Part shown: positions 9,857-11,515 of the stretch, one piece after another
Numbering within the stretch: position 1 is the first letter of the stretch
Layout of the letters: the number at the start of each line of letters is the position of its first letter
Assembly (NCBI GenBank): GCA_016906335.1
Contig: JADEYG010000009.1
Span: 558,001 to 622,000, forward strand
Source of the DNA: Novakomyces olei
Taxonomy: Eukaryota
Direction of reading: 5' to 3'
Length of the DNA: 64,000 nucleotides
Translations under genes and position numbers: made by a program
The notes under the pieces: generated by a model
The model's input: only the letters and a program-made list of their open reading frames with translations
Databases searched by the model: none
What the model was told of the DNA's origin: nothing

Positions 9857-11515
9857 ATGCAGCTGCTCAGCCAAAGACTTGCAAGGGCGTCGAGGACAAG
9901 ATTTACGCGTCAGTATAAAATGCCGAAACGAGGAGCGGATGGAAATGCCCGTTCTGAAGAACTGCCTCCAGAATTGCACCGTCCGTCATTCGCACGGGCC
10001 CAAGAGTACGCGAATGGTACGCGTAAATCGCCGCTCCAAGTATTGTATGACACTCGAGAGTCGCGTAAATATTCGCCTCAAGATACAACGGCAGTCTTAC
10101 ACTGGTTCCGCTCTGATTTACGTGTGGGCGACAATACCGCTCTGTCTGAAGCGAGCGCATTAGCGAAAAAAACCAAGAGTCCTCTCTACGCGCTGTACAC
10201 TGTGAGTTGGGCCGATTGGCACAATCATGGAACGAGTCCATTGCGTATGGATTTTGAGCTTCGGACATTGGAGAAATTGCAAGAAAATTTGAGGTCACAT
10301 GGAATCCCCTTGGCCATTCTTGAGATTGAACAAGCACGGGACCATGCAACTGCTATTTGCGATTTTGCAAAGGAGCATAAAGTGTCCCACATTTTTGCGA
10401 ATTACGAGTACCAGGTGAACGAGCTACGAAGGGATACTCGGGCAATAGAGCTTTTGGCAGACGCAGGAATTGCCTTTCACCTATTCCACGACCAAACTGT
10501 AATCCCACCGGGTCAAGTCGTGAACGATGGGGGGAAGCCTATCAAAGTTTTCACTCCCTTTCATCGAGCTTGGCTTTCAGAGATCAAAGCTGACAAGCAG
10601 CTTATCGAGGCTCAGCAGCCGGTGGGAAAACATGATCTGCCAGGCACGAAATTTGAAAGCACAAAGATACCTTCAGTACCGGAAACGACTCTGGACAAGG
10701 CGACACGGTCACGTATGGCAAAGCTGTGGCCGGCTGGGGAAGACGCAGCTTTGGAAAGGCTTCAAACTTTCCTGAAGAAGCATGTCGAAGACTATGCAGA
10801 ACAAAGAAATGTTCCTTGGAAGGATGCTACTTCAAGACTAAGCGTTCACTTTGCTGCAGGCACTCTTTCTCCCCGCCAGGCTATATCTGCTGCCTCTCGT
10901 GTGGGAGCAATTTCAGGTGAATCTTCAGGGACGGCTGCGTGGGTTAGGCAGGTTGCTTTTCGTGATTTTTACCGTCAAATGATGGCCATTGAACCTTATA
11001 TTGTTATGCATATGCCGCAGAATCTTAATTTTGACAAGGTAAAGTGGACGTACGATCACGAAATGTGGGAAAAATGGTGCCAGGGCCGCACTGGATTTCC
11101 CTGGATCGATGCATGCATGCGGCAACTATTGCAGGAAGGTTATATGCACAATCGAGGACGAATGGCGGTAGCGAGTTTTTTAACTAAAAACATGTTGATC
11201 GACTACCGACGCGGCGAAAGGTTCTTCATGGAACATTTGATTGACGGGGATTACAGCAATAATAATTTTGGGTTCCAGCCTGATTATACTGTAATGAATC
11301 CATTGATACAGAGCAAAAAGTTTGACAAAGATGGCCGCTTTATTCGTAAGTTTGTCAAGGAGCTTTCCAGCTTGGATCCAAGCGATATTCATGAGCCCTC
11401 TCGCACACTCAACAAGACTGATTTTGCAAAACTGGGGTACCCGGAGCCCTGCCTTGATTATGCCGAGACGAAGGCACGAGCGATTGAGCAGTTTAAACGC
11501 GATTTACGCAGTTAG
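9857..11515 (+). CDS. Photolyase/cryptochrome family flavoprotein (class I CPD-like, divergent active site)
   Basis: HWFRSDLRVGDN, TSRLSVHF, WCQGRTGFPWIDACMRQL, MHNRGRM, LIDGD motifs; intronless. Confidence 0.93.
   Translation: MQLLSQRLARASRTRFTRQYKMPKRGADGNARSEELPPELHRPSFARAQEYANGTRKSPLQVLYDTRESRKYSPQDTTAVLHWFRSDLRVGDNTALSEASALAKKTKSPLYALYTVSWADWHNHGTSPLRMDFELRTLEKLQENLRSHGIPLAILEIEQARDHATAICDFAKEHKVSHIFANYEYQVNELRRDTRAIELLADAGIAFHLFHDQTVIPPGQVVNDGGKPIKVFTPFHRAWLSEIKADKQLIEAQQPVGKHDLPGTKFESTKIPSVPETTLDKATRSRMAKLWPAGEDAALERLQTFLKKHVEDYAEQRNVPWKDATSRLSVHFAAGTLSPRQAISAASRVGAISGESSGTAAWVRQVAFRDFYRQMMAIEPYIVMHMPQNLNFDKVKWTYDHEMWEKWCQGRTGFPWIDACMRQLLQEGYMHNRGRMAVASFLTKNMLIDYRRGERFFMEHLIDGDYSNNNFGFQPDYTVMNPLIQSKKFDKDGRFIRKFVKELSSLDPSDIHEPSRTLNKTDFAKLGYPEPCLDYAETKARAIEQFKRDLRS

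Follow-up and report, generated by a model that had tools for sequence, protein, structure and literature searches.

A short-loop relative of fungal class I photolyases with phenylalanine at the proximal triad position

Photolyases repair with FADH- that is excited through the antenna, and the tryptophan triad serves for photoreduction of oxidised flavin; the enzymes reportedly stay in the FADH- form in vivo, requiring the antenna, with which photoreduction can dispense, rather than the triad, and sensing by the known cryptochrome photoreceptors depends on triad photoreduction (PMC10940379). The primary donor is W382, in the chain W382-W359-W306 (PMC12177928 and PMC13274461, excerpts), and plant cryptochromes carry Asp at the N378 position (PMC10940379, excerpt). 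An incomplete triad has been described for the NewPHLs, CPD photolyases that act only on single-stranded DNA; the aromatic wedge of residues 277 and 384, which shields the 5' thymine, is retained even in these proteins, and their authors argue that the active state is maintained only with photoreduction (PMC7736829, excerpt). For fungi, the excerpts of reviews and phylogenies available to us describe class I CPD, (6-4) and DASH types, and several fungal DASH proteins are reported to lack repair (PMC13451438, excerpt). N-terminal extensions are known for fungal CPD photolyases, and under oxidative stress the Aspergillus nidulans protein CryA, a regulatory class I photolyase, shuttles between nucleus and mitochondria (PMC12887071, excerpt). 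Here we compare with these systems a photolyase-type gene in a 64,000-nucleotide stretch of Novakomyces olei DNA (the window), which an earlier note had singled out for a broken triad and a remodelled lesion pocket.

The gene and its residue map

The gene encodes a protein of 531 residues, P0001 (Table 1), within a frame that is stop-free from 9827 to 11515, stop to stop, in the window's list of open reading frames; all the motifs quoted in the earlier note lie in this one frame, where it had placed them. Pfam recognises DNA_photolyase (PF00875, E 2e-43) and FAD_binding_7 (PF03441, E 4e-59), both above cut-off. With antenna and FAD-binding domains both present, P0001 is a member of the cryptochrome/photolyase superfamily. 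Its best sequence match among solved structures is E. coli class I photolyase (E 2e-82), and its AlphaFold2 model (mean pLDDT 90.8) finds 1dnp as the top structural match (Z 44.9, rmsd 1.7, 456 aligned). The residue-changing codons are real, because an independent metagenome run (X2), produced in a different study from the possible source, spans 10750-11700 and has neither another letter nor a gap relative to the window; a second run (X1), which may itself be the window's source, was left out of this confirmation. A hidden intron or an assembly error behind the deletion or Phe382 is ruled out by the continuous reading, the clade-wide shortening by 10 residues and the X2 identity.

Table 1. Features of the P0001 gene (window positions) and of other light- and UV-related genes in the same genome. 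E. coli PhrB numbering is used for substitutions, with P0001 numbering where residues are equated.
Position	Strand	Feature	Basis
9857..9919	+	Upstream in-frame ATG; 21-residue, Arg-rich (5 R, 1 K), acid-free peptide, possibly a mitochondrial presequence
9920..10090	+	Fungal class I-type N-terminal extension from MPKR; possible nuclear-targeting basic motif	alignment
9920..11515	+	Class I CPD photolyase-fold gene, intronless ORF, 531 aa (P0001), MPKR start	ORF translation, Pfam, AF2 model
10094..10591	+	Antenna domain; H103 (=H44) and N167-E168 (=N108-E109) kept	Pfam PF00875, residues 59-224
10829..10843	+	TSRLS FAD-phosphate motif (T234-S238); R236 kept	alignment
10940..10972	+	Helix WVRQVAFRDFY: W271 kept; E274Q (Q344) private within the clade; W277F (F347) clade-wide	alignment
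11045..11047	+	W376 = distal triad Trp W306, retained	alignment
11147..11164	+	HNRGRM: N341, R342, R344, M345 retained	alignment
11204..11206	+	Y429 = medial triad position W359; Tyr in 124/127 short-loop entries	alignment
11243..11263	+	DGD flavin motif (D372, D374) and N448 = N378, opposite flavin N5	alignment
11273..11275	+	F452 (TTC) = proximal triad Trp W382; sole Phe among 437 classified entries	alignment, X2 identity
11276..11302	+	Shortened loop QPDYTVMNP: 10 residues including W384 missing; F396Y and R397T (T457) clade-wide; F399M (M459)	loop-length distribution, alignment
G000:C7:1529424-1531461 (L004:2425-4462)	+	(6-4) photolyase/Cry1-type gene, HHLGRH, apparent short intron near L004:3826-3866
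G000:C3:1239791-1240651 (L016)		UVE1/UvdE UV endonuclease	E 2e-101
G000:C2:1212743-1213692 (L017, L021)		WC-1-like LOV protein (NCRFLQ)
G000:C7:796092-796340 (L019)		WC-2-like PAS and GATA-finger protein

We aligned P0001 to E. coli PhrB, which gives the residue equivalences used throughout. Relative to PhrB, P0001 carries E274Q, W277F, W359Y, W382F, F396Y, R397T and F399M, together with a 10-residue deletion that removes W384. The alignment thus bears out the substitutions that had been claimed for the motifs WVRQVAFRDFY (E274Q and W277F) and LIDYRRG (W359Y), as well as W382F, since position 382 is Phe in both plausible registers of the NNNFGF stretch. The claim that some ten residues were lost along with W384 and the YFR arginine stands in part: the deletion after position 382 is of exactly 10 residues, and W384 is absent whether the gap is placed at 383-392 or at 384-393, but R397 is substituted by Thr rather than deleted. 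The triad positions 382-359-306 therefore read Phe-Tyr-Trp in place of the three tryptophans, and the canonical wedge and loop set, an aromatic wedge at 277 and 384 plus the R397 loop, is replaced by F277, a deleted 384 and T397. By contrast with the pocket, the FAD motifs that the earlier note had called intact are so: Y222, T234-S238, W271, R278, N341, R344, D372, D374 and N378 are all retained, in an ORF without interruption. H44, N108 and E109, residues of the MTHF site, are also kept, and position 293 is Met as in fungal PHR1, as read from the sequence. The C-terminus falls within a few residues of the end of E. coli PhrB, so that P0001 has no cryptochrome tail.

The P0001 gene is flanked by a HOOK-domain coiled-coil gene (window 7164-8948, +) and a multi-exon MAD1 gene (about 12000-14796, +), and no functional link of these two neighbours to P0001 was seen. 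An AT-rich short tandem repeat of AATA units lies downstream of the gene, at about 11785-11840, and GC skew is strongly positive (0.16-0.24) over the first 6 kb of the window (1-6000). Upstream, a GATCGA/GATC repeat at 9757-9769 resembles a white-collar binding site; we rejected it as such because it is at chance level, the window holding 35 GATCGA-type hexamers and 58 of 100 shuffles matching the repeat. The hexamer was not found upstream of the (6-4) photolyase or UVE1 genes in the same genome.

Place of P0001 in the photolyase family

Among the described classes, P0001 is most readily compared with class I (E. coli PhrB, 1DNP; fungal PHR1 and A. nidulans CryA), with which it shares the fold, the FAD motifs, N378, E109/H44 and N341/R342/M345, and it is like fungal class I in having an N-terminal extension and no C-terminal tail; identity is 34-35% to PhrB and about 42% to fungal PHR1. 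It departs from class I in the deletion without W384, R397T, W277F and W359Y, all traits of its clade, and in W382F and E274Q, which are its own. Its score against the NCBIfam equivalog is 381 bits, below the cut-off of 506, for a model that is prokaryote-built and against which fungal PHR1 was not scored as a control. The CRY-DASH family model gives 176 bits against a cut-off of 317, with DASH structures far below the class I matches, and HNRGRM occupies the site at which (6-4) photolyases and animal-type cryptochromes have the catalytic His-His motif. Plant cryptochromes resemble P0001 in their descent from CPD photolyases and their altered lesion pocket, but P0001 has no C-terminal extension, carries Asn rather than Asp at the N5 position, lacks an intact triad and scores 164 on the plant cryptochrome model (cut-off 604). 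Plant cryptochromes bind MTHF without repairing. NewPHLs share the incomplete triad, but they retain Trp at the proximal and medial positions and at both wedge positions, all of which P0001 lacks; unlike NewPHL, P0001 has the normal two-domain topology.

Homologue searches and one cluster look-up yielded 532 homologous proteins, of which a motif test classified 487, leaving 45 fragments or proteins with broken motifs unclassified. Loop length among the 487 is bimodal, with 177 short loops (15-16 residues) and 310 long ones (24-32) peaking at 15 and 25, respectively. Removal of the cluster-mates from the look-up left 127 short-loop entries, P0001 included, and 310 long-loop entries, a set of 437 cluster representatives that are not independent lineages. 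The pocket changes run through the whole short-loop set: F277 is present in 126/127, Y359 in 124/127, T397 in 125/127 and Y396 in 124/127, and no entry has a residue at 384 (0/127). Long-loop entries, by contrast, have R397 in 309/310, W or F at 384 in 307/310 (any aromatic in 308/310) and W382 in 309/310, the exception being a gap. Flavin and lesion contacts are as constant in the short-loop set as the changes are, with N341, R342, R344, M345, D372, D374, N378 and Q404 each in 126/127, R226 in 125/127 and Y281 in 127/127, as are the antenna residues E109 (126/127) and H44 (123/127). The mean net charge of the catalytic domain is -0.6 in the short-loop clade versus +3.4 in long-loop proteins; that of P0001 itself is +4.

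These counts also separate what is peculiar to P0001 from what is common to its relatives. W382 is kept in 125 of the 127 short-loop entries (the other two being P0001, with Phe, and a gap) and W306 in 124, so the clade keeps a Trp-Tyr-Trp chain; the 'broken triad' of the earlier note is correct for P0001, which has Phe at 382, but does not extend to the clade. E274 is likewise present in 126/127, P0001 having Gln. The note had treated E274Q and W277F as telling, but long-loop class I entries also carry Q274 (13/310) and F277 (3/310). Thus, on these alignments, W382F is unique to P0001 among the 437 entries, and E274Q or W277F alone is not odd. The contrast drawn over W384 is similarly tempered: the residue is deleted, but canonical fungal PHR1 already has Phe at 384 in 62/64. 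P0001 shares with the short-loop clade the deletion, F277, Y359, Y396, T397, the PQNL motif, F241, R236 and a double-start layout, and it differs in F382, Q274 and G373, where the clade has W382, E274 and mostly Trp373. Four changes at near-invariant clade positions (W382F, E274Q, F399M and W418F) occur only or almost only in P0001, and ancestral PHR1 states persist at G373, F350, M367, S405 and H431. Its nearest relatives are 47-50% identical, and mean identity to the short-loop clade is 46%.

We placed P0001 with a quick IQ-TREE run (LG+G4; 84 class I rows out of 225 near-full-length, 535 columns, with E. coli as the root). All 21 short-loop rows form one group (support 99), and P0001 branches as its sister (SH-aLRT 100). 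Together they adjoin ascomycete PHR1 (80, not starred), and both belong to a larger group of fungal-type class I proteins (97). The terminal branch of P0001 measures 0.63, and those of two other clade members 0.64 and 0.62. By this phylogeny, P0001 stands among class I CPD photolyases but in a separate paralogue clade beside ascomycete PHR1, and it is the deepest-branching sampled member of this short-loop clade, an old ascomycete duplicate of class I PHR1, a placement that rests on one quick LG+G4 tree with the trait columns included. The duplication would then be old and the host would lie outside the well-sampled classes.

Short-loop entries with a confirmed motif and a name come from Elsinoe, Neophaeotheca, Tothia, Decorospora, Exophiala, Xylariaceae, Thyridium, cf. 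Caloplaca, Xanthomendoza and Didymella, with cluster-mates from Diaporthe, Heterodermia, Cladonia and Usnea; presumably they span four Pezizomycotina classes. A Protein Atlas search with P0001 matched only fungal photolyase clusters. The few plant-labelled short-loop entries are probably fungal contamination, and no prokaryotic name occurs among the named entries, most entries being nameless. The homologue searches found no close relative sharing W382F: P0324, the top match of a region search and a candidate for a closer Phe382 relative, was rejected because it has a long loop and owes its high score to a segment that is duplicated within it, probably artefactually. Two further entries deserve mention: P0129, a more degenerate short-loop-like relative with Q274 that has lost HNRxRM (GHSPRV) and is possibly decaying or further diverged, and P0583, a database gene model in which NADP-glutamate dehydrogenase and a short-loop photolyase appear as one protein, probably because annotation joined two neighbouring genes.

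Genome complement and the double start

All searches of the genome (14.3 Mb, 15 contigs) returned two photolyase-family genes, P0001 and a second gene that matches (6-4) photolyases and has an ATCA tandem repeat upstream, at about L004:2098-2204. The earlier note had called for a check for a second, canonical PHR1, and the profile, protein and DNA-pattern searches gave none: canonical PHR1, DASH and class II genes were not found with PF03441, PF00875, two PHR1 proteins, TIGR02765 or TIGR00591, and an NNGGW DNA pattern had 3 matches versus 2 in the control, with 0 photolyase exons. The genome thus appears to lack PHR1 and DASH, although a gene in an assembly gap or in very short exons would escape these searches. 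Light sensing and UV repair are retained (WC-1, WC-2, UVE1 and the (6-4) gene), yet PHR1 and DASH appear to be absent. Elsewhere the two types coexist: one assembly (locus-tag prefix Q9219) carries both a canonical PHR1 (P0329) and a short-loop copy (the C-terminal part of P0583). Knufia petricola reportedly has two putative CPD photolyases, one of 648 aa and the other of 539 aa (PMC11567843, Table S2, excerpt). The smaller one, KpCPF3 (WWZ17651.1), possibly belongs to the short-loop clade, matched by size and description only; it was not among the members listed for 29 clusters, at most 15 for each.

The double start recurs among relatives. M-x(0-4)-KR occurs within the first 90 residues of 63/127 short-loop entries, and a basic extension before M-x-KR (41-65 aa, 0-2 acidic residues) is annotated in 13 of the 90 short-loop entries with a recognisable domain start; for the others, only their DNA would show whether such a start lies upstream. 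A similar layout is seen in some canonical PHR1 entries, and within one Didymella-type cluster the annotations differ in which of the two starts they use (P0638, P0641). We infer that the double start of P0001 may give mitochondrial and nuclear isoforms. Such dual targeting would fit repair and regulation alike, because mitochondrial shuttling has been described for the regulatory CryA (PMC12887071, excerpt).

Possible roles of P0001

Our preferred reading, offered tentatively and with real doubt, is that P0001 may be a nuclear and mitochondrial FADH- photoenzyme with an altered, probably single-strand, substrate scope and no need for photoreduction. FADH- chemistry is favoured over sensing because the triad is lost while the antenna residues, N378 and N341/R342/M345 are kept and a tail is absent, and the altered scope is suggested because the whole clade lacks W384, R397 and half of the loop but keeps the photoenzyme features. 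P0001 would bind FAD and a folate (MTHF) antenna, and would be made as a nuclear form from the MPKR start and a mitochondrial form from the upstream ATG. N378 and cellular reductants, rather than photoreduction, would keep its flavin in the FADH- state; the antenna would take up UV-A and excite FADH-, and the electron would pass to a pyrimidine dimer held by N341, R342, M345 and residue 274. W382F would be tolerated because the triad serves re-reduction rather than catalysis. When a dimer flips out of duplex DNA, the loop of residues 389-399 takes up the vacated space; R397 contributes to binding. With the W384 wall, R397 and half of this loop gone, P0001 would probably be poor at flipping lesions from duplex DNA, and its substrate would be dimers in single-stranded or loosely paired nucleic acid. 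The niche for single-strand repair would be open, since several fungal DASH proteins have lost repair (PMC13451438, excerpt). The analogy that we propose to CRY-DASH and NewPHL lies in the CPD-type polar contacts kept and the duplex-engaging elements lost, a DASH-like scope that would have been reached by a separate route; more speculatively, the clade-wide Tyr396 may replace W384.

For this photoenzyme we count the clade-wide polar lesion and FAD contacts with E109, the missing tail, the presequence-like extension and the finding of no PHR1 or DASH in the genome; against it we count the loss of R397, kept in nearly every long-loop entry (309/310), the catalytic domain of the clade, less basic on average, the double duty of several kept residues as FAD contacts, and the plant cryptochromes that bind MTHF and do not repair. 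NewPHLs weigh on both sides: they provide a precedent, but the ssDNA-specific enzymes keep the wedge, where P0001 has F277 and a deleted 384, and their authors hold photoreduction to be necessary (PMC7736829, excerpt). Nothing forces a repair role, because PHR1 and a short-loop copy coexist in one assembly and this genome has UVE1. A broader proposal, possible but somewhat unlikely, would make the short-loop clade a fourth fungal branch of the photolyase family that has gone unrecognised. Its members would be folate/FADH- photoenzymes of nucleus and mitochondria, with an opened pocket for a substrate other than duplex CPDs (ssDNA or RNA dimers, or another photoproduct), and P0001 would be a natural class I-type enzyme that works without the proximal Trp.

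The alternative that survives best, unlikely in our estimate but a serious contender, is a non-repairing, cryptochrome-like regulator derived from a class I photolyase, which would bind FAD and MTHF and, in both nucleus and mitochondria, exert its effect by way of partner proteins or DNA. The clade would sense light, through Trp-Tyr-Trp, or redox state, and P0001 would be light-independent or use another donor, for which W386 (=W316), Y445 and Y456 are candidates. Such a role would suit the absence, throughout the clade, of W384, R397 and the loop, together with W277F, the presence of a short-loop copy beside canonical PHR1 in at least one assembly and the retention of W382 (125/127) and W306 (124/127) in the clade; yet the CPD-type residues E274 and M345 are nearly invariant there, the loss of W382 in P0001 removes the usual sensing photochemistry, P0001 has no C-terminal extension, and WC-1 and WC-2 are available in the genome for blue-light sensing. 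Fungal class I photolyases can indeed regulate, as CryA does while moving between nucleus and mitochondria (PMC12887071, excerpt), but N378 is kept in place of the plant-cryptochrome Asp (PMC10940379, excerpt). The earlier note had suggested, as a possibility, a photoreceptor or light-independent regulator; given the lost triad, the kept antenna-site residues and N378, the absent tail and the double start, we do not favour this as the first reading, but the note's view of a poorly characterised fungal subfamily distinct from standard PHR1 agrees with the short-loop clade, in which W384, R397 and the loop are gone.

Less likely again is a working duplex-DNA CPD photolyase in which the shortened loop re-forms the pocket, with Y396 for W384, and which replaces a lost PHR1. 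The genome retains (6-4) photolyase, UVE1 and the white-collar genes, and the searches gave no class I gene besides P0001, but UVE1 can handle CPDs in the dark. W277F and E274Q are each present in some long-loop proteins, but R397 and an aromatic 384 are nearly invariant in long-loop class I, and long retention next to an intact PHR1 is better explained by divergence than by redundancy. The 539-aa Knufia protein, possibly short-loop, is labelled a CPD photolyase in databases and in PMC11567843 (Table S2, excerpt); database labels, however, are automatic. Least likely of all is that the clade is functional and P0001 is losing function under relaxed selection, with W382F, E274Q, F399M and W418F as early decay. 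These four near-invariant clade positions are changed only or almost only in P0001, and the searches gave no close relative with W382F that would speak for its persistence over time. However, P0001 has an uninterrupted ORF and retains every FAD-contact and antenna residue, its terminal branch is like those of two other members (0.63 versus 0.64 and 0.62), and it has the ancestral PHR1 states at G373, F350, M367, S405 and H431.

Neither the deletion nor the short-loop clade turned up in our full-text literature search, which covered few subscription papers; the excerpts of PMC4059230, PMC12080771, PMC4564169 and PMC13274461 do not mention the clade, which may have been drawn in a published tree before, and the nearest literature trace is the label 'CPD photolyase' for KpCPF3, itself a putative member. 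A conserved clade with a rebuilt pocket thus sits in databases under 'CPD photolyase', with named matches that include lichen, rock and leaf fungi, and because it hides under this label, counts of 'two CPD photolyases' offered to explain UV tolerance may be wrong. The need for the Trp triad in living cells has long been argued, and P0001 is a natural W382F case beside more than 100 relatives that keep the Trp. Since no PHR1 or DASH was found, photoreactivation in this organism, with the (6-4) enzyme controlled for, would report almost directly on P0001. If the broader proposal for the clade is true, P0001 would show that photoreduction can be given up in evolution.
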